Shown in pieces: positions 38,361 through 57,942 of a DNA stretch of 64,000 nt. Each line of letters starts with the position of its first letter. The first letter of the stretch is position 1. Both the position numbers and the translations under genes were made by a program. Under the pieces are notes generated by a model. That model made no database searches. It had not been told where the DNA came from and saw only the letters and a list, made by a program, of their open reading frames with translations. The stretch spans positions 108,619 to 172,618 of the forward strand of contig NZ_CAXBOU010000008.1 of NCBI RefSeq assembly GCF_963977385.1. Reading direction: 5' to 3'. The DNA is from an uncultured Maribacter sp. (GTDB lineage: Bacteria > Bacteroidota > Bacteroidia > Flavobacteriales > Flavobacteriaceae).

Positions 38361-39434
38361 CTAATGGCCATAATCCATATGATCTACTTTTCCTTTCATT
38401 AATCTTTTTTGAATAATCATATAAATGAAGAGGAGTATGAAACCAATAATTCCCCAATAAAGTGCTACTGATAAACTATAATCAGAAGCAGCTGTATTGT
38501 ATATTGTTAATGGTTCATGTGTATCATTAACAGAAGGCAATATCACAGGAAATAAAGATGCTAATGATGATGTAATTCCCCCAACTATTAATAAGGTTGA
38601 CAAGACAAAAGCATTGCTGTCTTTTTTGATTTTTTTAATAAAAAATAACCCAATTAAGCCTGTTAAATAAATAACTGGAAAAACAATAAGATAAGGTTTA
38701 AGAATAAAATTATCTAAAGAATTTGGATTCACTATTTGCCATACAAATAAAGAAAAGACCGTTAGAATCGTTAACGCAATGTTTAACTTAAAGATTACAC
38801 TTTTAAGCTTGTTGTTTATTGACGAATTAGTTTTTAGAATTACCCAATTAGCACCATGAATAGCTAATGTTACAACAGATATTAACCCAATAATAATTGT
38901 AAACCAATCTATGACACCAGGATGTTCAGATAAAGGACTAAAACTACTATTCCATAAGGGTAGGAAAAAATAATGTCCTTCATGTACAGATATGCCATTA
39001 TCAACACCACCTAAATTTACACCTCTTACAATATTGCCTAATGCGATACCGAAAAATAAGGCTAGTAATAAACTAGAAACTCCGAAAGATTTGTCCCAGA
39101 TATCTTTCCACATTTGGAATTTAAATTGCCCCCTTAATTCTAACCCAATAGCGCGGAAAATTATTAACCATAAAACTAGTATCAATGGTAAATAGAAACC
39201 ACTAAAAACCGAAGCATAGAATGTTGGGAATGCCATAAAAAGCATCCCACCGGCAGCGACTAACCAAACTTCATTAGAATCCCAAAATAGACCAGCAGAT
39301 TTTGCAATGACTTCTTTATCTTTTTCCTTTTTAGCAAAGAACAAATGAATAATTCCTGTTCCAAAATCATAACCATCCAAAATAAAAAATACAGCTAAAA
39401 CAGTGGCTATTAAAATGTACCAAAATATTTCCAT
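38361..39434 (-). CDS. cydB: cytochrome bd ubiquinol oxidase subunit II
   Basis: 357 aa. N-terminus WYILIATVLAVFFILDGYDFGTGI is typical of CydB. Lies 2 nt after cydA. Confidence 0.9.
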   Translation of the reverse strand: MEIFWYILIATVLAVFFILDGYDFGTGIIHLFFAKKEKDKEVIAKSAGLFWDSNEVWLVAAGGMLFMAFPTFYASVFSGFYLPLILVLWLIIFRAIGLELRGQFKFQMWKDIWDKSFGVSSLLLALFFGIALGNIVRGVNLGGVDNGISVHEGHYFFLPLWNSSFSPLSEHPGVIDWFTIIIGLISVVTLAIHGANWVILKTNSSINNKLKSVIFKLNIALTILTVFSLFVWQIVNPNSLDNFILKPYLIVFPVIYLTGLIGLFFIKKIKKDSNAFVLSTLLIVGGITSSLASLFPVILPSVNDTHEPLTIYNTAASDYSLSVALYWGIIGFILLFIYMIIQKRLMKGKVDHMDYGH

Positions 39435-39436
39435 AA

Positions 39437-40829: not shown

Positions 40830-40845
40830 GGTAACCATTGATACA
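40830..40845 (-). promoter_or_regulatory. CRP/FNR-type box upstream of cydAB
   Basis: Gene-oriented TGTATCAATGGTTACC (one half-site degenerate). After 20 nt comes a perfect -7 box TACTTTTG (40802..40809, minus strand). Confidence 0.55.
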
Positions 40846-41015: not shown

Positions 41016-41495
41016 TTAGTCTTTGTATGCAGATAGCATCCATACTAATTTTTCTTGTTGCACAATATAATCGCTCATTAAAGAAACTGTTCCTTCGTCT
41101 TCAGCCTCGGCAGCAATTTTAAGTGTTGCTCTCTCTTTTTTTAGTAAAATAGTCAAGCTTGCTAAAATATTATCTACAGCTATATCTCCGTCAACAACAT
41201 TTTCGATAGGCTTAATTTCTGAGTTTTCAATATACGTTGCGAAGGTATGAATAGGGGTAAAGCTCAAGGTTAGTACACGTTCAGCAATTTCATCAACCTT
41301 AATTAAAGCGTCATTGTATAATTCCTCGAACTTAAGGTGAAGCTCAAAAAACTTTCTTCCTTTAATATTCCAATGAAAACCTCTAAGGTTCATATAGAAC
41401 ATTTGATAATTCGATAGTACATCATTTAAGTGATTAGCGATATCATTTGAACTTTTTTTATCTAATCCGATATTTGATAGTTCTGTATTCGTCAT
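41016..41495 (-). CDS. dps: Dps family DNA-protection/ferritin-like protein
   Basis: 159 aa. Contains LNDVLSNYQMFYMNLRGFHWNIKG..F..LH..FEE, which carries the ferroxidase-centre residues. Confidence 0.9.
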   Translation of the reverse strand: MTNTELSNIGLDKKSSNDIANHLNDVLSNYQMFYMNLRGFHWNIKGRKFFELHLKFEELYNDALIKVDEIAERVLTLSFTPIHTFATYIENSEIKPIENVVDGDIAVDNILASLTILLKKERATLKIAAEAEDEGTVSLMSDYIVQQEKLVWMLSAYKD

Positions 41496-41590: not shown

Positions 41591-41606
41591 GGGTAACTTA
41601 GGTTAC
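41591..41606 (-). promoter_or_regulatory. CRP/FNR-type box upstream of dps
   Basis: Gene-oriented TGTAACCTAAGTTACC. After 20 nt comes the -7-like TATCTTTA (41563..41570, minus strand). Confidence 0.65.
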
Positions 41607-41710: not shown

Positions 41711-41726
41711 TGTGACCAAAGTCACA
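41711..41726 (+). promoter_or_regulatory. CRP/FNR-type box upstream of 41760 / TonB-dependent receptor unit
   Basis: TGTGACCAAAGTCACA, a perfect CRP-like TGTGA-N6-TCACA. After 21 nt comes a perfect -7 box TAATTTTG (41748..41755), only 4 nt before the ATG at 41760. Confidence 0.7.
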
Positions 41727-44580: not shown

Positions 44581-45108
44581 TTATGGCATTAAAATATAAC
44601 CATCAAGTTGGTAATTGGCAAGCACCATCATAGCCGATAAACCTAATTCTGTATTTGGGTTTAAATCTTCTGCACCAATACCTCTAGATGCTGTAGCTTG
44701 GGCACATACTATTAGTTTTACACCGTAATCTTTTAAAAGTTGAATAACTTCTGCATTTGGGTTTTCCTTTTCGTATTTGGCTTTATACTTAGCATCGTTT
44801 AAAGCGGTAAATGTAGCCCCACCATGTATAGCTGCTACAATATTTACTTTATCGGCAGAAATACCATTAATACCTAGCATGTTAATCATACGTGCAATTT
44901 TAAAATATCCAATATTAGACCCTTCCATTTCTCGATCGTCTTTTAGGTCAAAAACGATATTGTATTCCTTATCAGCATCTGGTAGTGTAGTCACATCTTT
45001 AAAATCTTTAATTTTTCCGTAACCATCTATTACAGGAGTAATCCATTCTTGTGCAGATGAGAGTTGTGTAGCCATAATTGCTATTAAAATTAAAAGTACT
45101 TTTTTCAT
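44581..45108 (-). CDS. secreted DsrE/DsrF-like sulfur-relay family protein
   Basis: 175 aa with a signal peptide. DsrE-like pattern (NIVFDL...VAAIHGGAT...VCAQA). Confidence 0.65.
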   Translation of the reverse strand: MKKVLLILIAIMATQLSSAQEWITPVIDGYGKIKDFKDVTTLPDADKEYNIVFDLKDDREMEGSNIGYFKIARMINMLGINGISADKVNIVAAIHGGATFTALNDAKYKAKYEKENPNAEVIQLLKDYGVKLIVCAQATASRGIGAEDLNPNTELGLSAMMVLANYQLDGYILMP

Positions 45109-45219
45109 GAGTTTGTAGAATTTTAAATTAGTGTAGTTTGGTTATAAATATATGATGATAGCTACTAATGTCCGTTATTTTTTAAAGTAATAAAAGTAAG
45201 TAGGGTTATTTAACGCTAC

Positions 45220-45235
45220 TGTAACTCATGTTACT
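45220..45235. promoter_or_regulatory. single CRP/FNR-type box shared by divergent promoters (dsrE-like / dihaem cytochrome)
   Basis: TGTAACTCATGTTACT. There are 21 nt to TAGATTGG (45257..45264, plus strand) and 21 nt to TACTTTTA (45191..45198, minus strand). Confidence 0.65.
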
Positions 45236-45311
45236 GTCATTATTAAATTGAATTTCTAGATTGGTTGACTAAATTAGTATCACAATAATTTTATAAGCTC
45301 GTTGCACAGGT

Positions 45312-46349
45312 ATGGAAGAATTTAGAACATTGACCAAAAAACTATATCATCTCTTTATAGTGGTTTTTATATTGGTCATGACCATATTTATAATGTTACT
45401 TATCTACGAGCCTAAATCTGAAAGTTATACCCCAATAATAACTGATGAAATTACTTCTATAACTATTTGGAAACCTAAAGATGCTATTACTGAAATTCCT
45501 AATATGTCCAAAGTGGTAAAAAAAGGATATTACTTGATTGCGGAGACGTCAAAGTATATGGGACCTAATGCCGAGAATGCCGAAGACCGATATAGTGGAA
45601 ATAATTTAGCATGTGCCAATTGCCACCTGCAAAAAGGAGCTCAAGCGGGCTCTGGTTCTTGGGTAGGTATTTTAGAACGATTTCCTCAATTTGGAGGTCG
45701 TGGTAATAGAGAAGGTACTATTCAAGATCGAATCAACGGTTGTATGGAACGCAGTATGAACGGTAAGATGCTTCCTGAAGATTCTGATAAAATGACCGCT
45801 ATTGTAGCCTATATGGATTGGTTGGGAGAAGGATTACCAGATAATAGAAAAGCAGAATTTAAAGGCTACCCAAAGATCGAGATTCCGAATGTTGCGGTAG
45901 ATTTAGATAAAGGCAGGGACGTATATAACAAAGAGTGTATAATTTGTCATGCAGAAAATGGAGCGGGAGTACTAAATCCAATGGATGGTAAAACCTATAC
46001 GTATCCGCCATTATGGGGGCCAGATAGTTTCAATGACGGAGCAGGAATGAATAGGGTAATTACTTCTGCAGAATTCATAAAAAGTAATATGCCTTATTTA
46101 CAGGCAACTTGGGATAATCCTAAATTGACAGATGAAGAGGCTTATCATGTGGCGGGATATATTAATAGTTTTGCAAGACCACATAAGGCAAATAAAGAAA
46201 ATGATTACCCCAATAAAAAATTAAAACCGGTATCTACTCCTTATGGTCCTTGGGTTGACGATTTTTCTCCAGAACAACACAAATACGGACCATTTCCACC
46301 TATAATGGAGTTTTACGAGAAAGAATACGGTATTACTAAAACGAAATAG
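45312..46349 (+). CDS. dihaem c-type cytochrome, TsdA-like (thiosulfate dehydrogenase family candidate)
   Basis: 345 aa with an N-terminal TM/signal anchor. Two CxxCH sites (CANCH, CIICH). The segment TIQDRINGCMERSMNG resembles the region carrying the Cys haem ligand in TsdA/SoxA-type cytochromes. Confidence 0.55.
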   Translation: MEEFRTLTKKLYHLFIVVFILVMTIFIMLLIYEPKSESYTPIITDEITSITIWKPKDAITEIPNMSKVVKKGYYLIAETSKYMGPNAENAEDRYSGNNLACANCHLQKGAQAGSGSWVGILERFPQFGGRGNREGTIQDRINGCMERSMNGKMLPEDSDKMTAIVAYMDWLGEGLPDNRKAEFKGYPKIEIPNVAVDLDKGRDVYNKECIICHAENGAGVLNPMDGKTYTYPPLWGPDSFNDGAGMNRVITSAEFIKSNMPYLQATWDNPKLTDEEAYHVAGYINSFARPHKANKENDYPNKKLKPVSTPYGPWVDDFSPEQHKYGPFPPIMEFYEKEYGITKTK

Positions 46350-46354
46350 GCTTT

Positions 46355-47692
46355 ATGCGAATACTATTAATACTCTTTATTTGCTTGCCTATTTTTTCTT
46401 TGGGACAAGATTCTGTTGCTACTAAGAAGAAAGGAAATCTTTCTGGACAATGGCGTACGTATTATATGATGACGGCTAACAAAGATGATTTAAAGGATTT
46501 TAATGCTTTGGCCACAGGTGGTAAATTAAAATATCAATATGACATTTTAGACAATTTAGAATTAGGAGCAGCCTTATATAATACCACCAATTTAGGGTTA
46601 CAAAATTTAACTGTTCCTGATAATACTACCGGTAGAATTAGCAGATATGAAGAAGGATTGTTTGATAGATTGAACCTTAGTAATGATGCTGTTTTTTTAT
46701 TAGGGGAATTATATGTGAAATATAAATTGAACCAGCATGCCTTTACACTAGGGCGAATGAAAATAAATACACCACTTATAAACCCTGAAGATGGTAGAAT
46801 GATACCCACTTTAGTGCAAGGGTTTTGGTATAATTATAAAGCGAGTAAAAGTACTTTTCAATTGGGGTTATTAAATGAAATAGCACCAAGATCTACAGGT
46901 CAATTTTACGGAATTGGTGAGAGTATAGGTACATATCCGGTTGGTAGAAACAAGGGTGGTAATGCTTCTCAATATTCAGATAATTCGGAGTCAGATTATA
47001 TTTTAATGTTTAATGCAGATTTTGAAATAGCTAAGAATTTAAAGCTAAATGTATGGAACCAATATGTAGATAATGTGTTCAATTCTATCTACATTAAACC
47101 TTCTTTGAAGATATCTGAATCTGTACAAATAGAAGGGGAGTGGTTACACCTGAATAAGATTGGAGATGGTGGTAATTCTTTAGATTCGCTCCGCTATTTT
47201 AATCAGAATACAGCAGATGTTTTAGGGTTAAAGATTGCTTATAAAAAAAAGGGAGGGTTGGTGAGCTTAGCTTATAATAGAATATTGCCACAAGGTCAAT
47301 TTTTATCTCCAAGGGAATGGGGTAGAGAAGATTTGTTCAGTTTTCAAAAGCGAGAGCGTAGCGAAGGCTCTGCCGATAATCACGCTTTGGTTCTGAACTA
47401 TAAAAATGAGTTCGAAATACTAAAAGAGGATCTAAACCTAACTTCAATATTAAGTATTGGTAAGCATTGGAAACCAGCAGTAACCAATGCTGTTCTTAAT
47501 AAATATGCCATGCCAGATTATACGCATATTAACTTAGATATATTCTTCTATATTAAAAAATTAAAGCACTTTAAACCAGAGCTTTTACTTACTTCAAAAA
47601 TTGGTAATGGTGATATTCCAGATAATCCTAACTTCTATTTTAATAAGGTAGATATGTTTCATGTAGACGTAATACTCAACTATAACTTTTAA
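46355..47692 (+). CDS. outer-membrane porin-like beta-barrel protein
   Basis: 445 aa with a signal peptide. Alternating beta-strand pattern and a C-terminal aromatic residue (…NYNF). Lies 5 nt after the cytochrome gene. Confidence 0.5.
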   Translation: MRILLILFICLPIFSLGQDSVATKKKGNLSGQWRTYYMMTANKDDLKDFNALATGGKLKYQYDILDNLELGAALYNTTNLGLQNLTVPDNTTGRISRYEEGLFDRLNLSNDAVFLLGELYVKYKLNQHAFTLGRMKINTPLINPEDGRMIPTLVQGFWYNYKASKSTFQLGLLNEIAPRSTGQFYGIGESIGTYPVGRNKGGNASQYSDNSESDYILMFNADFEIAKNLKLNVWNQYVDNVFNSIYIKPSLKISESVQIEGEWLHLNKIGDGGNSLDSLRYFNQNTADVLGLKIAYKKKGGLVSLAYNRILPQGQFLSPREWGREDLFSFQKRERSEGSADNHALVLNYKNEFEILKEDLNLTSILSIGKHWKPAVTNAVLNKYAMPDYTHINLDIFFYIKKLKHFKPELLLTSKIGNGDIPDNPNFYFNKVDMFHVDVILNYNF

Positions 47693-47708
47693 AAAGACTA
47701 AAAAAAAC

Positions 47709-47733
47709 CCCCATTTCAATGGGGATTGTTTTT
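47709..47733. terminator. weak terminator hairpin
   Basis: ccccat-ttca-atgggg followed by ttgttttt. Lies between convergent genes. Confidence 0.45.
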
Positions 47734-47742
47734 GGTAGTAAA

Positions 47743-49053
47743 TTAAACATCTTTGCCCTTCATCATCTTATTCCAATACAAATAAGGAAGGCCATATTTT
47801 TTAAGCATCCATAATCTCCAATGTTCTTTAGAAGAATCAAAGATTAGCATCTGCTTCAGTTTTGGGTCTGGTGTAAAGTTGTTGTCATAATCAAATTCGG
47901 CCAAAACCATTTTACCGTAATCGGTTACTAAAGGGCAAGAAGAATAACCGTTGTAAGATTTAGTTCCCATTTTATGGGTATTTATTAAAAGGTCAATATT
48001 ATCAACTACAATAGGTGCTTACTTACGAATTGCCGCACCTGTTTTGGCTGTTGGCAATGCAGCTACATCTCCTAAGCCAAAAATATTAGAGTATGTATTA
48101 TGTTGCATAGTTTGATGATTTACATCTAACCAGCCCGCAGGGTTTACCAAAGTTGATTCTTTTACAAATTTAGGAGCTATAGAAGGTGGTGCAGTATGTA
48201 ACATATCATAATGAATACCATATCGATTTCCGTCAATAATTACCTTAACATCTTTATAATTGTATTGAAACTTATCGTCTAGTTTTAAGTCATCAACTTT
48301 ATTACTTGAAATTACGACACAACCTCCGGCTGTAATTTCTTGTCCCATTTCATACCATGCAATTTGTTTCTCGCCATCTACAGCGACTAATTTATGGTGA
48401 AATCTTAGGTTAATATCTTTACGGTCTACAACCTCCATTAAGGTTTTGGCTACCTCTTTTACTCCAAAAATAACGGTACCTCCAGTCGCAAATATAACAT
48501 CGGTCTTTTTCCTAACACCACTTTTTCTAAAATGATTATCAGCTAAATACATGATTTTTTGTGGTGCTCCGCCACATTTAATCGGTGTTGTAGGTTGTGT
48601 GAATAATGCGGTGCCTCCCTTGAAGTTTTTAATGACATCCCAAGTATGTTTTGGATTTGTATAATTACTGCACACCACACCTTTATCCATTGCCTCTCCA
48701 AGTCCAGGTACTAAACTAAAATCATAGGCAAGACCTGGGGCAACTACTAAATAATCATAAGTAATATCTCCTTTTAATGAGGTATGAATAATGTTATTTT
48801 CTGGGTCAAAACCTGTTGCCTTGTCCTTTATCCAAGTAGCACCTTTAGGTATAACAGAAGACATTGGTCTGGCAGTTTTTTCAAAATCATATGTACCAGC
48901 ACCTACGAGAGTCCACGCAGGTTGATAATAATGGGTGTCAGCAGGTTCAATAATTGCAACGTCTTTAGCTTTCTTTTGTGTGAGAAGCTGGGCTGCTACC
49001 ATAATACCTGCAGTACCACCTCCAATAATCAATACCTGATGATGTGTGCTCAT
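47743..49053 (-). pseudogene. type II (SQRDL-like) sulfide:quinone oxidoreductase interrupted by a single in-frame TAA
   Basis: ORFs 48019..49053 and 47743..47970 are in the same frame. The only break is the TAA at 48019..48021. The 48 nt between them read through as APIVVDNIDLLINTHK. The downstream part carries the conserved GYSSCPLVT...AEFDY...LYWN C-terminal region. Confidence 0.75.
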
Positions 49054-49107
49054 TTTATAACTATTTTTTAGAATTTAATAAATATAATAGTTATCAATTT
49101 CTAATTA

Positions 49108-49123
49108 TGTAACAAGAGTTACA
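49108..49123 (-). promoter_or_regulatory. CRP/FNR-type box upstream of the interrupted type II SQR
   Basis: Perfect palindrome arms TGTAACAAGAGTTACA. After 21 nt comes the -7-like TATATTTA (49079..49086, minus strand). Confidence 0.7.
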
Positions 49124-49205
49124 TAAGTCAAGTTATATTGAAATAGGTAAATTAAATGATTCTAAAACAAATAGAATTTGTTTTAGAATCATTTAAGAAA
49201 TAGCC

Positions 49206-49412
49206 TTATTTTTTCACCCTGCAGGTATTAGCACCAAACAAAGTATATAATGGACAAAAACTAACAAATGTTGTTAAGATTAATATGGCTGCTACTGCCA
49301 CTACTATATAGCCTAAAGTTCCACCAACAGTATCCGTGTAAAATGTAGTTAAAAGAGCTACGGCTATAAAGAATCTAATAAATCGGTCTGTACTTCCCAT
49401 ATTTTTTTTCAT
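49206..49412 (-). CDS. DUF2892 (YgaP-like) small membrane protein
   Basis: 68 aa. STDRFIRFFIAVALL...FCPLYTLFG is typical of DUF2892. Confidence 0.7.
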   Translation of the reverse strand: MKKNMGSTDRFIRFFIAVALLTTFYTDTVGGTLGYIVVAVAAILILTTFVSFCPLYTLFGANTCRVKK

Positions 49413-49542
49413 GACACTAATTTTTATTTTATGTGTTAAACCGCAAACTGTAATGATGTGTAGGTTATATAGACAAACAGAGTAGCACTATAGTTTTATG
49501 TTAAAGATATACTGCAAAGTAATATTAACCTATCAGCTTAAG

Positions 49543-49558
49543 TATGACATTTGTCATA
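49543..49558 (-). promoter_or_regulatory. CRP/FNR-type box variant (TATGAC-N4-GTCATA)
   Basis: Perfect palindrome arms TATGACATTTGTCATA. After 21 nt comes a weak -7-like TACTTTGC on the minus strand. Lies 131 nt upstream of the DUF2892 ATG. Confidence 0.4.
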
Positions 49559-49588
49559 ATTGAAGCTTAAGATAATAGTAGGTTAATA

Positions 49589-49604
49589 TGTAACAAGAGT
49601 TACA
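49589..49604 (+). promoter_or_regulatory. CRP/FNR-type box upstream of the fatty-acid-hydroxylase-family gene
   Basis: TGTAACAAGAGTTACA, a 16-mer identical to 49108..49123. After 21 nt comes TATATTTA (49626..49633). Confidence 0.7.
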
Positions 49605-49650
49605 GAATTGCTGTTTATTAAAAAGTATATTTACCAAAATCGTAATACGA

Positions 49651-50526
49651 ATGGAAGCATATGTAGATGCATTTTTAAACGCAGTTTCGGGAACATTTAG
49701 TTGGACCTGGAAATCTATTATTTTTAATGTGCCATGGTACCTTAATTACTTTTGGGGCTTAATCTTTATCTCTTTGATAGTTTGGTTTTTAGAAATCGTT
49801 TTTCCTTGGAGAAAGCAACAAGGGGTTTTTAGAAAAGATTTCTGGCTAGATGGTTTTTATATGTTTTTCAACTTCTTTTTATTCGCGATAGCCATTAGTG
49901 GTATTTATAAAATAATAAATGTTTTTTTTGGGGATATAGGTATTACCGCAAATAGTCTGGCGGTTATAAACATATCTCAATGGCCAATGTGGGGTCAGTT
50001 GTTGCTATTTTTTATTGTATTGGATTTTGTACAGTGGTTTACTCATATACTATTACATAAGTATGCTTTTCTATGGAATTTTCATAAGGTACACCATAGT
50101 GTTAAAGAGATGGGATTTGCAGCACATTTACGTTACCATTGGATGGAGAATATATTCTACAAACCCCTGAAGACATTCGGGGTCATGATTCTTGGTGGTT
50201 TTGAACCCGAACAAGCATATATTGTTCATTTTGCAGCCATTGCTATTGGCCATTTTAACCATTCGAATATAAAAATTACATGGGGTCCGTTGAAGTATAT
50301 TTTCAATAACCCTGTAATGCACTTATATCATCATGCTTATGACCTGCCAAAAGGAACTTATGGTGTAAACTTTGGTATCAGTTTAAGTATATGGGATTAT
50401 ATTTTCAAGACCGATTATATACCTGAAGATAGTGGAGATGTAAAGTTAGGTTACCCTGGAGATGAGAATTTACCAAAAGACTTTCTTGGGCAAATGGTAC
50501 ATGGTTTTAAAGGCAAAAAGAAGTAA
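49651..50526 (+). CDS. fatty acid hydroxylase / sterol desaturase superfamily membrane protein
   Basis: 291 aa with four TM helices. Histidine boxes HILLH, HKVHH and HLYHH. Confidence 0.8.
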   Translation: MEAYVDAFLNAVSGTFSWTWKSIIFNVPWYLNYFWGLIFISLIVWFLEIVFPWRKQQGVFRKDFWLDGFYMFFNFFLFAIAISGIYKIINVFFGDIGITANSLAVINISQWPMWGQLLLFFIVLDFVQWFTHILLHKYAFLWNFHKVHHSVKEMGFAAHLRYHWMENIFYKPLKTFGVMILGGFEPEQAYIVHFAAIAIGHFNHSNIKITWGPLKYIFNNPVMHLYHHAYDLPKGTYGVNFGISLSIWDYIFKTDYIPEDSGDVKLGYPGDENLPKDFLGQMVHGFKGKKK

Positions 50527-50551
50527 TTAATTACTTCTTTTTGCCTTTAAA
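50506..50551. terminator. 46-nt perfect palindrome, bidirectional terminator
   Basis: tttaaaggcaaaaagaagtaatt / aattacttctttttgcctttaaa with 23 perfect pairs, centred at 50528/50529. It contains the last codons and the TAA of 49651..50526. Confidence 0.8.
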
Positions 50552-50563
50552 TAAGAGTTGGGT

Positions 50564-50833
50564 TTATTTAGATAATTTTCCAGAAGCACAGCTTACAAAA
50601 GATTTAGCTTTTGATAGTACCGAATTACCTTGATCAATACTTGGGTATCCAATTGACTTTAGCTTATCTTTTACTGTAGTAATAGCCTCTTGATTTGATA
50701 CATCGAACTTTACCGATGACGATTCTACGGATACAGTTACATTTGTTACCGCAGGTAATTCTTCTAATTTAGAGATAACCGTTTTGGCACAGCCGCCACA
50801 CTTTAGATTTTGAATAGGAATTACTGATGTCAT
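50564..50833 (-). CDS. heavy-metal-associated (HMA) domain protein
   Basis: 89 aa. The motif LKCGGCAKTV is the CxxC metal-binding motif at the start of a ferredoxin-like fold. Confidence 0.75.
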   Translation of the reverse strand: MTSVIPIQNLKCGGCAKTVISKLEELPAVTNVTVSVESSSVKFDVSNQEAITTVKDKLKSIGYPSIDQGNSVLSKAKSFVSCASGKLSK

Positions 50834-50839
50834 ATTTTA

Positions 50840-51478
50840 TTATTTTATTTCGTCGTTGAAAGTTATACTCCAAAGACCCCTTACTTCATTTTCTTTATAA
50901 TCAATAGCTTTGTCATAAGGATATTTATCGTTTATGATCTGCATAACCTTTGGGTCTATATTCGATACAGGTGTTCCATGGCAATTTAAGCACATGGTAT
51001 TCGTAATAATAGGAGAATAAAAATTTGTAATGCCATTTTCCGTAGTTAAAATGGGCTCATAAGACTCCTTATTGTTAATTTTTGATTTAAAATATTCAAT
51101 ATACTCAAGCTCTTTTTCATTAGCTTGATTTTCAAGGTTTCTAGGCTTATCGGTTACCCTTCTGATTTTGGCATTGTGTATAATTGCCATGCTATCGGTT
51201 AGTGGACAAGCTTTTTCATTACAAAACTCTACTGCAGCCACAACACCATTTTTCTGTATGTTCGATATGAGGTTTTTACCTAGAACCTTTTGAGTACTTT
51301 GGGCATACATTTTACCTTTTTCCATGAAATACATGTCATCGATATCAGTATTTGCATTCTTGTCATTTTGAATTTTAGATTCATATTGGGGATTATTTAA
51401 CCCCTCTTGTTTAACTTTAGGAGAATCTTTACAACCAAGCATAAAAGCAACTACTAAAAATAGCGCAATATTTTTCAT
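50840..51478 (-). CDS. DUF3365-like haem-c lipoprotein
   Basis: 212 aa with lipobox LGC and a single CxxCH (CLNCH). Contains NKRRVT-like IRRVTDKPRN and a WSITF ending, as in DUF3365/Tll0287-like proteins. Confidence 0.6.
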   Translation of the reverse strand: MKNIALFLVVAFMLGCKDSPKVKQEGLNNPQYESKIQNDKNANTDIDDMYFMEKGKMYAQSTQKVLGKNLISNIQKNGVVAAVEFCNEKACPLTDSMAIIHNAKIRRVTDKPRNLENQANEKELEYIEYFKSKINNKESYEPILTTENGITNFYSPIITNTMCLNCHGTPVSNIDPKVMQIINDKYPYDKAIDYKENEVRGLWSITFNDEIK

Positions 51479-51580
51479 CCGATTAGAATTTTATAGTTTG
51501 CATGATGTATTAAATACAGCTTTCGTATAAGGGTACATTCTATATTTTACCGCGCCCATAAATAGAAATAGTTTCTTGAT

Positions 51581-51925
51581 TTAATTCCAAGAACTATAAC
51601 CGCCTTTTAAATCATATACTTCAAGAAAGCCCATGTTTAATAACTTACGTGCTGCTTTTTGACTTCTGGCTCCTGATCTGCAATAAACATATACCGCCTT
51701 ATTTTTATCTAACTTTTCAAAGAAATTTTTAAAATTGTTAGGGTTAAAAAAATCAATATTAATAGCATTTTTAATATGGCCGCTATTAAATTCAGATGCC
51801 GTTCTAACATCAATAGGTTTTATCTTGTTTGTAATAATGGCCGTTGCATACTCATTCTTTTTCAAAATAGTAATCTGGCCTAAAGTTTCTTTTTTCTTGC
51901 CAAAAATGGCGTCTAAAAATGACAT
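51581..51925 (-). CDS. single-domain rhodanese (sulfurtransferase)
   Basis: 114 aa with active-site loop CRSGARS and the motif DVRTASEFNSGHI. Confidence 0.85.
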   Translation of the reverse strand: MSFLDAIFGKKKETLGQITILKKNEYATAIITNKIKPIDVRTASEFNSGHIKNAINIDFFNPNNFKNFFEKLDKNKAVYVYCRSGARSQKAARKLLNMGFLEVYDLKGGYSSWN

Positions 51926-51960
51926 AATTATTCTGTTTAAAATTAATATTCAATACTAAA

Positions 51961-51990
51961 AGGAAACAGCCTTTTTCAAGACCGTTTCCT
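51961..51990 (-). terminator. weak hairpin between peroxiredoxin and rhodanese genes (attenuator or terminator)
   Basis: aggaaac...gtttcct, a 7-bp stem with a 16-nt loop and a short T-run on the minus strand. Confidence 0.35.
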
Positions 51991-52013
51991 GAACCAACCA
52001 ACCAATAAAAAAT

Positions 52014-52676
52014 TTAATTAAGACTTTTCTTAGCTAGATACCAATCAACTTTTTCTAGGGTATCATCTGCAATTCGAGCATTTAGTTCATCTAAAGTTTT
52101 AGGTGGAGAAACAATTACCTTGTCTCCCTTTTTCCAATCTAATGGCATCGCTACTTTATATTTGTCAGAAGTTTGTAAGGCTTCTAAAGCTCTTAAAATC
52201 TCATTCATATTACGACCTACATTTAAAGGGTAATACATAATTAGACGTATTTTTTTCTTAGGATCAATAAAGAATACTGCCCGTACAGCTGCAGTTTCAC
52301 TTTCATTAGGCTGTAACATTCCGTATTTCTTGGAGACTTTCATATCTATATCTGCTATGATAGGAAAATCGAAATATACCCCTGTATTCTGGCGAACATT
52401 TTGAACCCATCCTAAATGAGCATGAACACTATCTATACTTAGACCAAGAAGTTCTGTGTTAAGTACATCAAATTCTGGTTTACGTACTGCAAAGCCACTC
52501 ATTTCAGTAGTACAAACAGGTGTGAAATCTGCAGGATGCGAGAACATAACTATCCATTTGTTTTTAGCAAAATCTGATAATTTAATTTTTCCTTTTGTAG
52601 TAACAGCCTCAAAATCTGGAGCGATATCTCCAATTCTTGGCATACTGTTCACTTCAATATTATTTATAGTTTCCAT
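52014..52676 (-). CDS. peroxiredoxin (1-Cys/Prx6-like)
   Basis: 220 aa. Contains FSHPADFTPVCTTE with the peroxidatic Cys. The C-terminal extension is typical of the Prx6 subfamily. Confidence 0.9.
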   Translation of the reverse strand: METINNIEVNSMPRIGDIAPDFEAVTTKGKIKLSDFAKNKWIVMFSHPADFTPVCTTEMSGFAVRKPEFDVLNTELLGLSIDSVHAHLGWVQNVRQNTGVYFDFPIIADIDMKVSKKYGMLQPNESETAAVRAVFFIDPKKKIRLIMYYPLNVGRNMNEILRALEALQTSDKYKVAMPLDWKKGDKVIVSPPKTLDELNARIADDTLEKVDWYLAKKSLN

Positions 52677-52722
52677 GTTGTATTAATTTTAATTAAAGGT
52701 ATAACTACACCATAATTACTAC

Positions 52723-52738
52723 AGTAACTCTTGTTACA
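52723..52738 (-). promoter_or_regulatory. CRP/FNR-type box upstream of the prx-rhodanese-DUF3365-HMA unit
   Basis: Gene-oriented TGTAACAAGAGTTACT. After 21 nt comes TACCTTTA (52694..52701, minus strand). Confidence 0.7.
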
Positions 52739-52761
52739 TAGACCATAAAAAATATAAAAAT

Positions 52762-52797
52762 TTAAAAGGTGTATTTCTTAAGAAATACACCTTTTAA
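52762..52797 (-). terminator. rho-independent terminator after the first PDO-rhodanese gene
   Basis: Perfect palindrome ttaaaaggtgtatttctt / aagaaatacaccttttaa. Confidence 0.85.
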
Positions 52798-52865
52798 CAT
52801 CAATCTAAAAAACTAAAACAGTTCTTTAATTTATAGGTAGTTATACTACCAATACTGGGTAATAT

Positions 52866-54275
52866 TTATAATGTAGTAGGACAAATAAACTCAGATACTT
52901 GAATACCAGTTTCTTGTATAGCCTTAAAGCCGTCTTTTACATCAATGAGGTTATGTATACCTCTGCTTTTTAAAATGGAGGAAGCAATCATACTTCTATA
53001 ACCACCGGCACAGTGTACATAAAATATCTTATTTTCAGGAAATTCTGCTAAGTGGTCATTTAGAAAATCTAATGGTGTATTTACAGCTTCTAAAATATGC
53101 TCAGATAGATATTCAGATTCTTTACGTACATCGAACACAGGGGCTTTTTCACTTTCAATAATTTTTTTAAGCTCACTTGCATCGACTTGACTAACGGTAT
53201 CATATTCCATTGCAGCTTTTTTCCATGCCTCAAAACCTCCATCTAAATACCCTAAGGTACCATCGAAACCAACTCTAGAAAGTCGGGTTACTGCTTCCTC
53301 TTCTAATCCTACTGGCGCAACTAATAAAATGGGTTGTTTTACATCAGCGATCAAGGCTCCTACCCAAGGTGCAAAACTACCGTCTAGACCAATAAATATA
53401 GAACGTGGTATATGACCTTTAGCAAAATCATCTTGATGGCGCACATCTAATACAATGGCTCCCGTCTCATTTGCCGCAGCTTCAAAAGCCTTTGGGGAAA
53501 GCGCTCTTGTACCACGCTCCAATACTGTTTTGATATCTTCATAACCCTCTTTGTTCATTTTTACATTTAATGGAAAATACTGGGGCGGTGGAAGTAGACC
53601 ATCAATTACCTCTTCTATGAATTCTTCTTTGGTCATGTCTTTACGTAATGCGTAATTCACTTTCTTTTGGTTACCCAAGGTATCGACAGTTTCTTTCATC
53701 ATATTCTTGCCACAAGCAGAACCAGCACCATGTGCCGGATATACAATTACATCATCTGCTAACGGTATTATTTTTTCACGTAAGCTATCGTATAAATATC
53801 CTGCGAGGTCGCGCTCGGTTAATTCTCCCATTTTTTGGGCTAAATCTGGTCTTCCCACATCTCCAAGAAATAAGGTGTCTCCACTAAAAATAGCGTAGTC
53901 TATACCGTTGGAGTCTTTTAAAAGATAAGTGGTACTCTCCATAGTATGACCTGGGGTATGTAATGCAATAATGGTTACATCGCCCAATTTAAATTCCTGA
54001 TTATCTTTTGCTATAATAGCTTCGAAAGAAGGATTTGCTTTTGGCCCGTAAATAATATCTGCTCCAGTTTCTTTTGCTAAGGTTACATGGCCACTGACAA
54101 AATCGGCATGAAAATGAGTTTCAAAAATATATTTGATTTTTGCATTATCAGATTTCGCTTTATTTATGTAAGGTAACACCTCTCGTAAGGGATCAATTAT
54201 TGCAACCTCTCCATTACTTTCAATGTAATAAGCACCTTGAGCAAGACAGCCAGTATATATTTGTTCAACCTTCAT
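52866..54275 (-). CDS. persulfide dioxygenase (MBL fold) fused to two rhodanese domains (CstB/ETHE1-Rhd-like)
   Basis: 469 aa. Metallo-beta-lactamase motif THFHADFVSGH, HTPGHT, a middle inactive rhodanese and a C-terminal active rhodanese loop HCAGGYRS. Confidence 0.85.
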   Translation of the reverse strand: MKVEQIYTGCLAQGAYYIESNGEVAIIDPLREVLPYINKAKSDNAKIKYIFETHFHADFVSGHVTLAKETGADIIYGPKANPSFEAIIAKDNQEFKLGDVTIIALHTPGHTMESTTYLLKDSNGIDYAIFSGDTLFLGDVGRPDLAQKMGELTERDLAGYLYDSLREKIIPLADDVIVYPAHGAGSACGKNMMKETVDTLGNQKKVNYALRKDMTKEEFIEEVIDGLLPPPQYFPLNVKMNKEGYEDIKTVLERGTRALSPKAFEAAANETGAIVLDVRHQDDFAKGHIPRSIFIGLDGSFAPWVGALIADVKQPILLVAPVGLEEEAVTRLSRVGFDGTLGYLDGGFEAWKKAAMEYDTVSQVDASELKKIIESEKAPVFDVRKESEYLSEHILEAVNTPLDFLNDHLAEFPENKIFYVHCAGGYRSMIASSILKSRGIHNLIDVKDGFKAIQETGIQVSEFICPTTL

Positions 54276-54326
54276 AAGTTCACTTTTAAAATTATGTACA
54301 AAATTAAACCTTGAGATAGTATTGTA

Positions 54327-54342
54327 CAGTAACTTAGGTTAC
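54327..54342 (-). promoter_or_regulatory. CRP/FNR-type box upstream of PDO-rhodanese gene 1
   Basis: Gene-oriented TGTAACCTAAGTTACT. After 20 nt comes TTAATTTG (54299..54306, minus strand; one mismatch to TAnnTTTG). Confidence 0.65.
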
Positions 54343-54356
54343 ACTCGTTACTAGTT

Positions 54357-54391
54357 GCAAAAAAGCCCCGTTTTAAACGGGGCTTTTTTTT
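54357..54391 (-). terminator. rho-independent terminator after PDO-rhodanese gene 2
   Basis: aaaaaagccccg-ttttaaa-cggggctttttttt. Confidence 0.9.
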
Positions 54392-54405
54392 ATCATTTAA
54401 AAAAT

Positions 54406-55821
54406 CTATAATAGGGTAGAGGGACATACATACTCGGACTTCGGAATTGTAGTTTTCGAAATAGCTTCGAAACCGCCTCTAACATCTGTAAAATCTTGCC
54501 ATCCTCTTTGTTTCAGAATAGAAGCGGCAATCATACTACGATAACCACCTGCACAATGAAGAACAAACGGCTTATCTTTTGGAAATTGAGCCAAATGTTG
54601 ATTGATTTCATTTAAGGGAACATTAATTGCCCCAATAACATGCTCTGAATCGTACTCGCTCTTTTTTCTTACATCAATTATTATAGGCTTCTTATTCTTA
54701 TTAAGAGTTTCTAATTCAGGACCATCAATTCTATTGATATCTTCAAAATCTTTTCCAGCGGTTTTCCAAGCATCAAAGCCTCCTTTTAAAAAGCCTACAG
54801 TATTGTCGTAACCCACTCTCGATAATCTTGTAATCGCTTCTTTTTCCTTGTCTTTATAAGTGACTAAAAGTATTTCTTGTTTTATATCAGGTATCATTTC
54901 ACCAACCCATTGGGCAAAACTACCTTCAAGTCCAATATTAATACTGTTAGGGATAAAACCTTTGGCAAAGTCTTCGGCATTTCTGGTATCTAATACTAAA
55001 GCACCGGTTTCGTTTGCAACAGCTTCAAAAGCCTCTGGTGAATATGGTGTGGTAGCCCTATCCATAATTTTATCTAAACTCTCATAGCCTTGAATATTCA
55101 TAAGAACATTTTTTGGAAAATACCCTGGAGGTGCAGTTAAACCTGTCAACAGTTCTTTAATAAACTCATCTTTGGTCATGTCTGGGCGTAAAGCATAATT
55201 TACCTTTTTTTGATGGCCTAAAGTATCTGTAGTTTCTTTACTCATCATTTTACCACAAGCAGAACCTGCACCATGGTTAGGGTAAACTATTAAATCATCA
55301 CTTAAGGGCATTATTCTATTTCGAAGGGAATCGAATAAATATCCGGCTAATTTTTTTTCGGTCAAATCAGCTACAACATGTTGTGCCAAATCTGGTCTGC
55401 CTACATCACCAATAAACAAAGTGTCACCGGTAATAATACCATGTTCGTTTCCATTTTCATCTATTAAAAGATAAGTCGTACTTTCCATAGTGTGACCAGG
55501 AGTATGTATGACTTTTACTTTATAATCACCCACTTCAAATATTTGATTATCAACAGCAATTGTCGCCTCATAGCCAGGTTTTGCGCTTGGACCAAATACA
55601 ATTTCGGCACCTACTTTTTTCTTTAAATCTAAATGACCACTAACAAAATCGGCATGAAAATGAGTTTCAAATACGTACTTGATTTTCGCGTTGTCTTTTT
55701 TAGCACGGTCTAAATAAGGCTGTACTTCGCGTAATGGATCAAACACAGCTGCGACTCCTTTACTTTCAATATAATAAGCGGCATGCGCTAAGCATCCTGT
55801 ATATATTTGTTCTACTTTCAT
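54406..55821 (-). CDS. persulfide dioxygenase-rhodanese fusion, tandem paralogue
   Basis: ORF 54406..55884. I prefer the ATG at 55821 (MKVEQIYTGCLAH...), which aligns with the paralogue's start. Same motifs as the paralogue (THFHADFVSGH, HCAGGYRS). Roughly 60% identical to 52866..54275 by eye. Confidence 0.85.
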   Translation of the reverse strand: MKVEQIYTGCLAHAAYYIESKGVAAVFDPLREVQPYLDRAKKDNAKIKYVFETHFHADFVSGHLDLKKKVGAEIVFGPSAKPGYEATIAVDNQIFEVGDYKVKVIHTPGHTMESTTYLLIDENGNEHGIITGDTLFIGDVGRPDLAQHVVADLTEKKLAGYLFDSLRNRIMPLSDDLIVYPNHGAGSACGKMMSKETTDTLGHQKKVNYALRPDMTKDEFIKELLTGLTAPPGYFPKNVLMNIQGYESLDKIMDRATTPYSPEAFEAVANETGALVLDTRNAEDFAKGFIPNSINIGLEGSFAQWVGEMIPDIKQEILLVTYKDKEKEAITRLSRVGYDNTVGFLKGGFDAWKTAGKDFEDINRIDGPELETLNKNKKPIIIDVRKKSEYDSEHVIGAINVPLNEINQHLAQFPKDKPFVLHCAGGYRSMIAASILKQRGWQDFTDVRGGFEAISKTTIPKSEYVCPSTLL

Positions 55822-55876
55822 GGCGTAATAATTTTTGATTAATACTATAAAATTACTTCTTGTAAGTGTCTTGTAC

Positions 55877-55892
55877 AGTGACATTAGTCACA
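55877..55892 (-). promoter_or_regulatory. CRP/FNR-type box upstream of PDO-rhodanese gene 2
   Basis: Gene-oriented TGTGACTAATGTCACT. After 21 nt comes TAATTTTA (55848..55855, minus strand). Confidence 0.7.
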
Positions 55893-55903
55893 TAAGAAAA
55901 GAA

Positions 55904-56704
55904 TTATTTAAAAAATTCCATATAGAAAATAAAGATGGCCATAACCAGTATAAAATAGCCGAATCCTTTTTTAAGTTTTTTGCCATCAATAAAATTGCTG
56001 AGGTAACTTCCAATAAAAATTCCGATAAAAGAAAGGCCTGTGAATAGAGCTAAAAAATTCCAATCAATTTCCATAGTCATGGCATCTCCTAGAAAAAACC
56101 CCATTAAAGATTTTATGGCGATTATAATTAATGATGTACCCACGGCAACTTTCATTTCAACATTTGCCAATATAACCAATGCGGGGATGATTAAGAATCC
56201 GCCACCAGCACCAATCATGCCTGTGATACCACCAACGATTAATCCTTCTAATAAAATCAACGGATAGTTATAAGCAACATCGCCACTTTTAACTGTAATC
56301 TTCTCTTTCTTGAGCATAGAATACGCTGCAGGAAACATCAATACAGCAAACAGGCCGAACATGGCCATTCTACGTGTAAATTGAAATGCTTCAACTTGAA
56401 ATAAAATATCGGGCATTGCAGGTACTACATAATGTCTGACTACTGTTACGCCTATAATAGCAGGAATGCCAAAAACTAATGCCGTTCGCCAATCTACAAA
56501 TCCTTTAAGGTGCTGTTTCCAACCGCCTACCAATGCACTTGCGCCAACGATAAATAGAGAATATGCAGTTGCGACTTTCTCGTTTATGGAAAAAAGATAA
56601 GCTAGAACGGGTACTGCCAAAATTGAACCTCCACCACCGATAAGACCCAATGAGATACCTATAATTAAGGCGCTTATATATCCAAAAACATGTAACATTT
56701 CCAT
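55904..56704 (-). CDS. TauE/SafE family sulfite/anion exporter
   Basis: 266 aa with about 8 TM helices. Duplicated GGGGS/GAGGGF motifs (GLIGGGGSILAVP, GMIGAGGGFLIIP). Confidence 0.85.
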   Translation of the reverse strand: MEMLHVFGYISALIIGISLGLIGGGGSILAVPVLAYLFSINEKVATAYSLFIVGASALVGGWKQHLKGFVDWRTALVFGIPAIIGVTVVRHYVVPAMPDILFQVEAFQFTRRMAMFGLFAVLMFPAAYSMLKKEKITVKSGDVAYNYPLILLEGLIVGGITGMIGAGGGFLIIPALVILANVEMKVAVGTSLIIIAIKSLMGFFLGDAMTMEIDWNFLALFTGLSFIGIFIGSYLSNFIDGKKLKKGFGYFILVMAIFIFYMEFFK

Positions 56705-56750: not shown

Positions 56751-56766
56751 AGTAACAATAGTTACA
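56751..56766 (-). promoter_or_regulatory. CRP/FNR-type box upstream of tauE-like gene
   Basis: Gene-oriented TGTAACTATTGTTACT. After 21 nt comes a perfect TACTTTTG (56722..56729, minus strand). Lies 6 nt after the regulator's stop codon. Confidence 0.7.
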
Positions 56767-56772
56767 GAAGTA

Positions 56773-57405
56773 CTATAAATCTAAAATTTTAATGTAATTA
56801 CGATGAAGTTTTATTTTACCCATCTCCTCTAATTTTTTTAATAATCTGGAAATCACTACTCTAGAGCTATGAAGGTCATAAGCAATCTCTTGGTGGGTAC
56901 TATGAATAATATCATCGTTTGTTACCCTAGCTTTTTCTTTTAAGTAGCCAATTAAACGTTCGTCCATTTTTTGAAAAGCAATACTGTCTAACGTGCTCAA
57001 CAATTCATTTAGACGAACATGGTAACTACTGAAAACAAAATTCCGCCAAGATTTATATTTAATGGTCCATTCCTCCATCTTTTGAATAGGAACCATTATT
57101 AGCTTGGCATCAGTTTCTGCAACGGCTCTTATTTCACTTTTAGTATCGCCCATACAACACGCCATAGTCATTGAACACGTATCACCTTTCTCTAAATAAT
57201 ACAATAGAAGTTCGTCGCCATCTTCATCCTCTCTAAGAATTTTAATAACGCCAGATATTAATAATGGCATTCCTCTAAGGTAATCACCAATTTCTATTAA
57301 TTTATAACCTTCGGGAACCTCTTTAAAGGTACCTACTTGAACAATTTCATTAATTAGTTCCTCTTCAAAAATATTCCCGTATTGCTCTTTTAAGTCTTGG
57401 ATCAT
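56773..57405 (-). CDS. Crp/Fnr family transcriptional regulator
   Basis: 210 aa with a cNMP-binding-like beta-roll and a C-terminal HTH (HQEIAYDLHSSRVVISRLLKKL). No FNR-type N-terminal Cys cluster, but C-x5-CC (GDTCSMTMACCMGD) lies inside the beta-roll. Confidence 0.9.
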   Translation of the reverse strand: MIQDLKEQYGNIFEEELINEIVQVGTFKEVPEGYKLIEIGDYLRGMPLLISGVIKILREDEDGDELLLYYLEKGDTCSMTMACCMGDTKSEIRAVAETDAKLIMVPIQKMEEWTIKYKSWRNFVFSSYHVRLNELLSTLDSIAFQKMDERLIGYLKEKARVTNDDIIHSTHQEIAYDLHSSRVVISRLLKKLEEMGKIKLHRNYIKILDL

Positions 57406-57412: not shown

Positions 57413-57802
57413 TTAATTAACTTCTTGTGCTATTTTCTTATCAAATTTAAAAAATATATTTGCCCAAATCGATTTGGAAACTGCCGCTATCCAAGGCATG
57501 GCAAGTATTAAGCTAATGACGATTATAGCAAACAATGACGAAACCTTAAATTACAAGCCGTAAATCAATATCAAAACATTAGTGGCCAACGCAACAGCAA
57601 TACCTACGCCATAAGAAACATACATTCATCCACTATAAAAACTAGGTTTTAAACTGGAGATTAAATCGCATTTAGGGCATCGTTCTTTAATCTTGTTGAA
57701 ATTACTTAATTTATAAGGATTTGCCTTTAGGAATTCTCCTTTAAGACACTTTGGGCATTTCAAAAATATGATACAGTACAATTTGGAAGCTTTTGCTAAC
57801 AT
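57413..57802 (-). pseudogene. DUF983-like small membrane zinc-ribbon protein gene with two in-frame stops
   Basis: A single frame reads MLAKASKLYCIIFLKCPKCLKGEFLKANPYKLSNFNKIKERCPKCDLISSLKPSFYSG*MYVSYGVGIAVALATNVLILIYGL*FKVSSLFAIIVISLILAMPWIAAVSKSIWANIFFKFDKKIAQEVN. The TGA is at 57626..57628 and the TAA at 57551..57553. The CPxC...CPxC plus two-TM layout is as I recall for DUF983. Confidence 0.65.
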
Positions 57803-57849: not shown

Positions 57850-57865
57850 GGTAATCATAGTTGCA
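57850..57865 (-). promoter_or_regulatory. degenerate CRP/FNR-type box upstream of the DUF983-like/crp unit (possible autoregulation)
   Basis: Gene-oriented TGCAACTATGATTACC (2 mismatches). After 21 nt comes a perfect TAAATTTG (57821..57828, minus strand). Confidence 0.4.
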
Positions 57866-57926: not shown

Positions 57927-57942
57927 ACTGACATTGGTCATA
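57927..57942 (+). promoter_or_regulatory. CRP/FNR-type box upstream of hemN
   Basis: ACTGACATTGGTCATA. After 21 nt comes a perfect TAAGTTTG (57964..57971). The ATG is at 57990. Confidence 0.65.

Follow-up and report, generated by a model that had tools for sequence, protein, structure and literature searches.

How are genes of sulfide oxidation controlled together when they are dispersed over many small transcription units? The question is raised by positions 44581-56704 (the interval) of a 64,000-nt stretch of DNA from an uncultured Maribacter sp. (contig NZ_CAXBOU010000008.1), and this whole stretch is referred to here as the window. Heterotrophic oxidation by sulfide:quinone oxidoreductase (SQR) and persulfide dioxygenase (PDO) is currently regarded as one of the main sinks of sulfide in coastal sediments, where Flavobacteriaceae are prominent; the genes are known, and the point at issue is their control in the phylum Bacteroidetes. 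The reading favoured here, with a probability of about 0.6, is that the interval is the core of a reactive-sulfur-responsive regulon for sulfide/persulfide oxidation and product disposal, whose promoters would be served by a class II activator of the Crp/Fnr family encoded beside the cluster.

The element that joins the units is a 14-base palindrome, GTAAC-N4-GTTAC, which was found by reading the spacers between genes and is called here the type A box. Box counts cover the full window, in which nine perfect boxes are present and 0.06 are expected; all nine are intergenic and are confined to the part from 35.5 to 56.8 kb. When one mismatch is allowed, the count is 14, against 1.65 expected. The classical FNR box, TTGAT-N4-ATCAA, was tried as a candidate and is not enriched in the window (8 copies, 6.8 expected).

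The box has a fixed place in the promoter. In 80 species genome loci, which were anchored on the first PDO gene (PDO1), 145 of 180 perfect boxes have a -7 element of the form TAnnTTT[GA] on one side, which starts 22 nt past the box in 132 cases and 21 nt past it in 13. When these promoters are combined with those of the window and of 80 metagenome loci, which were anchored on the neighbouring regulator gene, 231 oriented promoters give the consensus T-GTAAC-N4-GTTAC-tgt, followed by 22 nt without information and then by TAnTTTTG, and no -33 element is conserved among them. Upstream of PDO1, the footprint of 12 species conserves the box and the -7 element alone. The flavobacterial sigma-A -7 element, TAnnTTTG, lies at -12 to -5 in the genome-wide map of transcription start sites of F. 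psychrophilum (PMC9723704). Because of this position and the 22-nt spacing, the box is predicted to cover -48 to -35 with its centre at -41.5, replacing the -33 element, with the start position taken from the published map. By this predicted placement, the arrangement is the class II Crp/Fnr activator position. The sequence-only reading, an earlier description of this DNA, had proposed an activator-type site, and the proposal is strengthened by the geometry of the 145 boxes and of the 231 oriented promoters.

Six perfect boxes lie inside the interval. The TauE gene is headed by the box GTAACAATAGTTAC at 56752-56765, with the -7 element TACTTTTG at 56729-56722, and PDO1 by GTAACTTAGGTTAC at 54329-54342, with TAATTTTG at 54306-54299. 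The peroxiredoxin gene has its box at 52724-52737 with the -7 element TACCTTTA, and the fatty-acid hydroxylase gene has its box at 49590-49603 with TATATTTA at 49626-49633. The box of the type II SQR gene (49109-49122) also has the -7 element TATATTTA, and in close strains its half-sites are kept and its spacer differs. The sixth box (45221-45234) is common to the divergent promoters of the DsrE-like gene, which is faced by the -7 element TACTTTTA, and of the TsdA-like gene with its porin, which is faced by the weaker TAGATTGG. The three perfect boxes outside the interval head a putative RND efflux pump (35573-35586), a second SQR (37683-37696) and a Dps/ferritin-like gene (41593-41606), and a copy with one mismatch at 40831-40844 heads cydAB, with the -7 element TACTTTTG.

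The claim that each unit carries its own copy of the box was correct for DsrE, the TsdA-porin pair, SQR, the fatty-acid hydroxylase, peroxiredoxin, PDO1 and TauE. No box precedes the rhodanese gene or the Tll0287-HMA pair, a variant of it precedes DUF2892 and the second PDO gene (PDO2), and the single type of site that had been described is therefore a box with two variants. The division into many small transcription units is borne out by terminator-like hairpins, which follow PDO2 (54359-54389, bidirectional), PDO1 (52762-52797, minus strand) and peroxiredoxin (51961-51990, before rhodanese), with another between the convergent SQR and porin genes; since they stand between units, the layout is real at the sequence level. 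A comparison of synteny had also been proposed, and the layout of separate units with boxes is kept across Flavobacteriaceae.

In public RNA data, related sequence was found only in oligo-dT sediment metatranscriptomes, as short contigs of 92-95% identity without usable 5' ends. Some of these contigs, about 95% identical, bridge the spacer between peroxiredoxin and rhodanese (51905-52039), including its hairpin. They are a weak hint of read-through into the box-less rhodanese gene, with carry-over of DNA as the alternative.

The protein that would bind the box is encoded directly upstream of TauE. This regulator (56773-57405, minus strand; 210 residues) matches Pfam cNMP_binding and HTH_Crp_2, shares 98% identity with proteins that bear the label Maribacter arcticus, and has 3DV8 as its nearest PDB entry, followed by NtcA and CRP. 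Its orthologue lies just upstream of TauE, SulP or PDO in 58 of the 80 PDO-anchored loci, which represent about twenty genera. Among the metagenome loci, 51 have at least 1.5 kb downstream of the regulator, and in 44 of them a sulfur gene follows within 5 kb; the gene that comes first downstream is TauE in 23, SulP in 10, PDO in 7, Tll0287 in 6, peroxiredoxin in 2 and rhodanese in 1. Regulator, box and sulfur genes are conserved reciprocally, and the targets of 137 oriented boxes across genera are PDO1 (33), TauE (13), DUF2892 (13), SulP (11), the outer-membrane component of the RND pump (10), type II SQR (9), a sulfite-oxidase-like Mo enzyme (9), the fatty-acid hydroxylase (8), rhodanese (6) and peroxiredoxin (5). 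The SulP targets are SulP-STAS transporters, and the families of the regulon were confirmed by Pfam. Perfect boxes that could not be oriented lie upstream of YeeE and cydAB in several loci (cydA in L114 and L119). A review of reactive-sulfur responses lists SQR, PDO, sulfurtransferases, TauE and YeeE, together with a shift to cytochrome bd (PMC13467558), and the set of box-headed genes matches this list.

The recognition helix of the regulator agrees with the box. In the window it reads S-R-V-V-I-S-R, and R-V-V-[IV]-S-R is found in 59 of 59 PDO-anchored orthologues, which places Val at the position of Glu181 of CRP; the metagenome loci are no test of this conservation, as the motif R-V-V-x-S-R was their search pattern. 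The half-site TGTAAC differs from the CRP half-site TGTGAC at position 7 only, and Val181 variants of CRP were selected on operators with A or T at this position (PMC2677863). The match between Val at the 181 position and A at position 7 of the site links the regulator to the box, and the box is very probably the site of this adjacent protein. Val181 CRP was also reported not to discriminate at position 7, and the regulator itself might use variant sites as well.

A degenerate box with two mismatches and a perfect -7 element (57851-57864) heads the fragmented DUF983 open reading frames (ORFs) and the regulator gene. The DUF983-like gene (57413-57802, minus strand), which lies between the regulator and hemN, is split into three ORFs, and its first stop is unchanged in the close metagenome strains X1 and X3. 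In relatives a perfect box heads DUF983 and the regulator, and DUF983 is intact behind it in M. ulvicola (L001) and in many metagenome loci, which suggests an autoregulated operon of the two genes; the box at 57851-57864 is probably the autoregulatory promoter of the regulator.

The only cysteines of the regulator are Cys77, Cys83 and Cys84, which form the pattern C-x5-CC. Cys77 is present in 59 of 59 orthologues and Cys83 and Cys84 in 57 of 59, and the complete pattern is found in 77 of 78 metagenome orthologues. In the alignment with CRP and NtcA, this triad falls within the segment that makes up the phosphate-binding cassette in cNMP domains. When 1.84 billion representative proteins were scanned, 226 clusters matched the regulator at E <= 1e-30, and C-x5-CC is present in 57 of the best 150 of these 226 clusters, with a helix of R-V-V or R-E-V. 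The first cysteine is kept in 11 of 11 aligned relatives, with or without the triad, and some distant members with the triad adjoin rhodanese, Tll0287, HMA or SulP genes.

The symmetric one-base variant of the box, TGAC-N4-GTCA (type B), is present in four copies in the window (0.49 expected). It resembles the CRP consensus and keeps the same 22-nt gap to the -7 element. Its copies at 41712-41725, 49544-49557, 55878-55891 and 57928-57941 head, respectively, an operon of hyp125 and a TonB receptor, DUF2892 (box ATGACATTTGTCAT), PDO2 and hemN; the PDO2 copy, GTGACATTAGTCAC, lies between TauE and PDO2 and has the -7 element TAATTTTA 22 nt on, on the minus strand. Because of the promoter positions, later start codons than those of the longest ORFs are taken for PDO2 and hemN. 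PDO2 likely starts at the ATG at 55821 (Met22), where its alignment to PDO1 and 3TP9 begins, and hemN likely at the ATG at 57990 and not at the TTG at 57969.

No second Crp/Fnr gene able to bind the variant was found in the window, and the probable binder of the variant is an R-E-V-helix paralogue encoded elsewhere. Paralogues with R-E-V adjoin DUF2892 in other genomes, and this helix beside DUF2892 fits the box with G. Three of them, in L005 (12930-13568), L127 (12307-12885) and L133 (12024-12602), are 36-39% identical to the regulator, have only the first cysteine and have the helix R-E-V-I-S-R; those of L005 and L127 are directly upstream of DUF2892, and in L133 a fatty-acid hydroxylase gene intervenes.

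The families of the window ORFs listed were assigned by Pfam, NCBIfam and PDB sequence searches, and every family named in the sequence-only reading was confirmed by Pfam and PDB sequence searches, including the upstream SQR, YeeE/YedE and DUF2892. Its gene list had omitted the fatty-acid hydroxylase and had named a type II SQR, whose frame is interrupted by a TAA. PDO1 (52866-54275) and PDO2 (54406-55884), both on the minus strand, have a metallo-beta-lactamase fold (Pfam Lactamase_B) followed by two rhodanese stretches and align end to end with 3TP9 (235.1 and 234.7 bits, respectively) and with 3R2U (199.5 and 192.7 bits), which we take to be S. aureus CstB, an identity that its PDB title does not confirm. 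They carry the motifs THFHADF, HTPGHT and HCAGGYRS, and PDO1 is 90% identical to an M. ulvicola protein. By domain order both are CstB-like persulfide dioxygenase-rhodanese fusions, with a predicted activity. TauE (55904-56704, minus strand; Pfam TauE, 131.6 bits) is a predicted TauE/SafE-type exporter of anions such as sulfite.

The type II SQR (47743-49053, minus strand; Pyr_redox_2) matches human SQOR with 350 bits over residues 3-433 (E = 1e-103). Its frame holds a TAA at 48019-48021, which changes Gln345 to a stop, and Gln is found at this position in human SQOR and in 16 of 16 flavobacterial orthologues. Both redox cysteines, at the positions of human Cys201 and Cys379, are encoded in PIKCGGAPQK and YSSCPLVT; the stop lies between them, so that the C-terminal one falls beyond it and no intact polypeptide with both cysteines would be made. 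Metagenome strains that are 98-99.4% identical have CAA at this codon, and one 100%-identical metagenome assembly has TAA, a support that is not independent if that run gave rise to the window. For these reasons the stop is treated as a real and recent nonsense mutation at the strain level, not as a family trait. Recoding to selenocysteine was rejected, as the codon is TAA, and a sequencing slip was rejected because the TAA recurs in the 100%-identical assembly. The type II SQR is, by its frame, inactivated in this strain, and the other, type I-like SQR (36175-37629, minus strand) is intact. The latter matches the type I SQR structures 3SZ0 and 3HYV, from A. ferrooxidans and Aquifex, with 116 bits and has candidates for the three conserved cysteines: Cys142 and Cys180 fall opposite the two N-terminal ones in the alignment, and Cys411 is present in the sequence. 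A small DUF6132 gene (35770-35979, minus strand) comes after this second SQR, and a DUF6132 gene is also found directly behind a distant regulator with the triad in L164.

On the periplasmic side, the DsrE/DsrF-like protein (44581-45108, minus strand; Pfam DsrE, 47 bits) has a signal-peptide-like N-terminus, unlike the cytoplasmic DsrE/TusD. Its Pfam match is limited to residues 79-173, its lone cysteine is at position 135, and it had no NCBIfam match. The TsdA-like dihaem cytochrome c (45312-46349, plus strand), which is membrane-anchored at its N-terminus, matches A. vinosum TsdA (4WQ7/4WQC) with 152 bits over residues 91-291. It has CxxCH at residues 101 and 209, GAGMNR is conserved, and its Cys144 aligns with the cysteine of GDCFERS, the axial ligand of haem 1, all of which place it in TsdA. 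An OprD-like porin (46355-47692, plus strand) begins 5 nt downstream of it.

The remaining genes of the interval are a DUF2892/YgaP-like transmembrane protein with two cysteines (49206-49412, minus strand; 74.9 bits in Pfam), an OlsE-like membrane protein of the fatty-acid hydroxylase superfamily (49651-50526, plus strand; 88.8 bits in Pfam, and 90 bits to NCBIfam OlsE, which is under the cut-off of that model), an HMA-domain protein with a CGGC motif (50564-50833, minus strand; Pfam), a Tll0287-like lipoprotein of the DUF3365 family that has a single CxxCH motif for haem c (50840-51478, minus strand; 72 bits in Pfam), a single-domain rhodanese with the active site CRSGARS (51581-51925, minus strand; Pfam and motif) and a 1-Cys peroxiredoxin with a single cysteine in FTPVCTTE (52014-52676, minus strand; AhpC-TSA and 1-cysPrx_C in Pfam). 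The fatty-acid hydroxylase is a conserved member of the regulon and is box-headed in several genera (8 other loci).

Outside the interval, the box-headed genes are the RND efflux operon (OEP, HlyD and AcrB; 29747-35532), cydAB of cytochrome bd oxidase (38361-40768) and Dps (41016-41495), all on the minus strand, besides the second SQR. Further upstream are the two halves of YeeE/YedE, as split genes (27957-28938), and a second DUF2892 (29223-29411). The only box upstream of YeeE/YedE (28991-29003) is degenerate, has a spacer of 3 nt (GTAAC-AGC-GTTAG) and has no correctly spaced -7 element; many relatives have a perfect box in this place. Three other groups of genes are not associated with boxes: a row on the plus strand (20048-27941) of DUF4159, a MoxR-type AAA ATPase, DUF58 and BatA-like proteins, which is similar to the aerotolerance operon of Bacteroides; a Reg_prop/His_kinase sensor together with a LytTR response regulator (12832-16620, plus strand); and a PAS histidine kinase (318-1469, minus strand).

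From the functions of these families the following scheme can be drawn. SQR, which in this strain would be the type I-like enzyme, would yield sulfane sulfur and pass its electrons to quinone and then to the sulfide-tolerant cytochrome bd. The two CstB-like fusions would turn persulfide into sulfite and thiosulfate, and TauE would move the sulfur anion out. The membrane-anchored TsdA, the DsrE-like protein and the porin would deal with thiosulfate on the periplasmic side, and peroxiredoxin, Dps, rhodanese, DUF2892, Tll0287-HMA and the RND pump would be accessory members. A pathway of SQR, PDO-rhodanese and sulfite export, with thiosulfate handling by TsdA and YeeE, had been proposed before and is supported, as a prediction, by the upheld family assignments. 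Most units would have their own promoter, where (T)GTAAC-N4-GTTAC at -41.5 would stand in for the -33 element. The Crp/Fnr protein would bind the box as a dimer, bring in RNA polymerase in the manner of a class II activator and probably activate its own gene too. Reactive sulfur species would turn the regulator on by acting on Cys77, Cys83 and Cys84 in the effector pocket, for which persulfidation, a polysulfide bridge or a cofactor bound by the cysteines are candidate chemistries.

Several points weigh against this scheme. A structure model of the regulator from 28 close homologues has a pLDDT of 52 with the sensor domain unfolded, and the comparative loci span +/-8-10 kb only, so the regulon is seen as a neighbourhood and not genome-wide. 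Nothing relevant was found in the literature on a Crp/Fnr sulfide regulator, on sulfur oxidation in Maribacter or on flavobacterial transcriptomes with these genes. Two distant members with the triad have no sulfur neighbours, and relatives with a single cysteine also adjoin TauE or DUF2892, so the CC pair is not required for the link to sulfur. The triad as determinant of this link is upheld in part only: by its neighbours the clade as a whole is linked to sulfur genes, and the triad is not proven to determine it. The regulon includes cydAB, Dps and peroxiredoxin, genes of a low-oxygen or oxidative-stress type, and the regulator of the window and of close Maribacter adjoins hemN, tandem Usp and cbb3 assembly and maturation genes. 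These two facts also suit an FNR-like sensor of O2 or redox state, which would hold an Fe-S cluster on the three cysteines and an acidic residue and would include the sulfide genes in its regulon since sulfide and hypoxia co-occur. The invariant Glu72 and the acidic residue 75 (D/E) are close to C-x5-CC, so such a cluster could be held, and the Fnr of Bacillus uses three cysteines plus Asp. This sensor is nevertheless unlikely. The hemN, usp and cco neighbours are limited to few Maribacter loci, as opposed to TauE, SulP or PDO in many genera and in the 44 of 51 regulator-anchored loci; hemN has the TGAC-N4-GTCA variant, not the type A box; and persulfide dioxygenase uses O2 as a substrate. The regulator is also not an FNR proper, as it is without the N-terminal cysteine cluster, its three cysteines all lie at 77-84, the window shows no enrichment of the FNR box, and FNR structures rank with the most distant of its PDB matches (E = 0.004).

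The signal could instead be sulfite, thiosulfate or another sulfur anion, for example from organosulfur catabolism, with a regulon that serves mainly for sulfite disposal. The commonest first targets are anion transporters (TauE and SulP, with the counts given above), the sulfite-oxidase-type Mo enzyme is box-headed in nine loci, and TsdA and YeeE handle thiosulfate; but the box-headed SQRs (type II in nine loci and type I-like in several) and cytochrome bd act on sulfide and not on sulfite, and a cysteine-rich pocket fits sulfane-sulfur chemistry, which makes an anion signal improbable. Reactive sulfur is somewhat favoured over O2 or redox state as the signal. A different question is the sign of control, as a box that spans -48 to -35, and so overlaps -35, could also serve a repressor that is freed by the signal, and most known sensors of reactive sulfur species repress (PMC13467558). 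The rigid spacing, exactly 22 nt in 132 of the 145 boxes with a -7 element at 21-22 nt, and the missing -33 element are features of class II activator promoters, and the position of repressor sites may vary. Classically, a Crp/Fnr protein that binds at -41.5 is an activator. A repressor has a small share of the probability, and the regulator probably acts as a class II activator. A bolder and tentative proposal is that the Crp/Fnr protein with the cysteine triad may represent a new structural class among the dedicated sensors of reactive sulfur, the first in its superfamily. It would control sulfide oxidation in the abundant marine Flavobacteriaceae by class II activation and not by repression. 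Its cNMP cassette would have been rebuilt as a cysteine pocket that detects persulfide or polysulfide, either directly or by way of a cofactor on the cysteines, and the R-E-V/TGTGAC lineage would be a sister that works in parallel from the same place in the promoter.

If the regulator senses reactive sulfur, a new fold would be added to the list of sensors of reactive sulfur species, in which dedicated members are known only from the CsoR, ArsR, Fis-type and MarR families (PMC13467558). Val or Glu at CRP position 181, paired with A or G at position 7 of the site, is a specificity pair that can be tested directly. The box is also a simple genomic marker to predict sulfur-responsive genes in marine Bacteroidota, and it reaches uncharacterised members such as DUF2892, the Tll0287-like haem protein, DUF983, DUF6132 and the OlsE-like hydroxylase.

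In the textbook cst, sqr and fis systems, the genes are gathered in one operon or in two divergent ones and are mostly controlled by a repressor; here, one short palindrome at -41.5 would connect about ten separate promoters with a single protein of the Crp/Fnr type. The cst operon of S. aureus (CstR; cstA-cstB-sqr with tauE) has the same enzyme logic of SQR, a multidomain persulfide dioxygenase-rhodanese and TauE, but its genes are arranged as two divergent operons, with a repressor of the CsoR family in control. In Proteobacteria, SqrR/BigR (ArsR family) and FisR (a sigma-54 activator) are likewise dedicated regulators of sqr, pdo, rhodanese and transporter genes and are encoded beside their targets, and FisR is also an activator (PMC13467558). 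SqrR/BigR sense through a cysteine pair in an ArsR fold and FisR works from afar at sigma-54 promoters, so both the family and the promoter mechanism differ from those proposed here. The absence of a dedicated repressor had been noted in the earlier description; in agreement with it, no regulator of the CstR/CsoR, SqrR/BigR/ArsR or sigma-54 FisR type is present among the window ORFs scanned for domains, and the conserved Crp/Fnr gene adjoins the cluster instead. No description of a Crp/Fnr-controlled, sulfur-responsive switch of this type was found in the literature searched.

The closest known site is that of HcpR2, a DNA-binding protein of the Crp/Fnr family with the consensus GTAACnnnnGTTAC (Rodionov et al. 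2005, PMC1274295), to which the consensus of the box is identical. What defines HcpR2 is its linkage to hcp together with a Pro at the position of Glu181 (PMC1274295), unlike the regulator described here, which has Val in 59 of 59 orthologues, TauE, SulP and PDO as neighbours and sulfur genes as targets. The window has no recognisable hcp gene; the screen of the related loci covered only the window proteins and three added families, with no search aimed at hcp. The class II CRP and FNR promoters of E. coli likewise have a palindromic 5-N4-5 site, which has its centre 29.5 bp before the first base of the -10/-7 element, that is at -41.5, and replaces the -35 element. They differ in that the polymerase here would carry the Bacteroidetes sigma-A, which uses the -7 element TAnnTTTG, and in that the effector would be neither cAMP nor an N-terminal FNR cluster.

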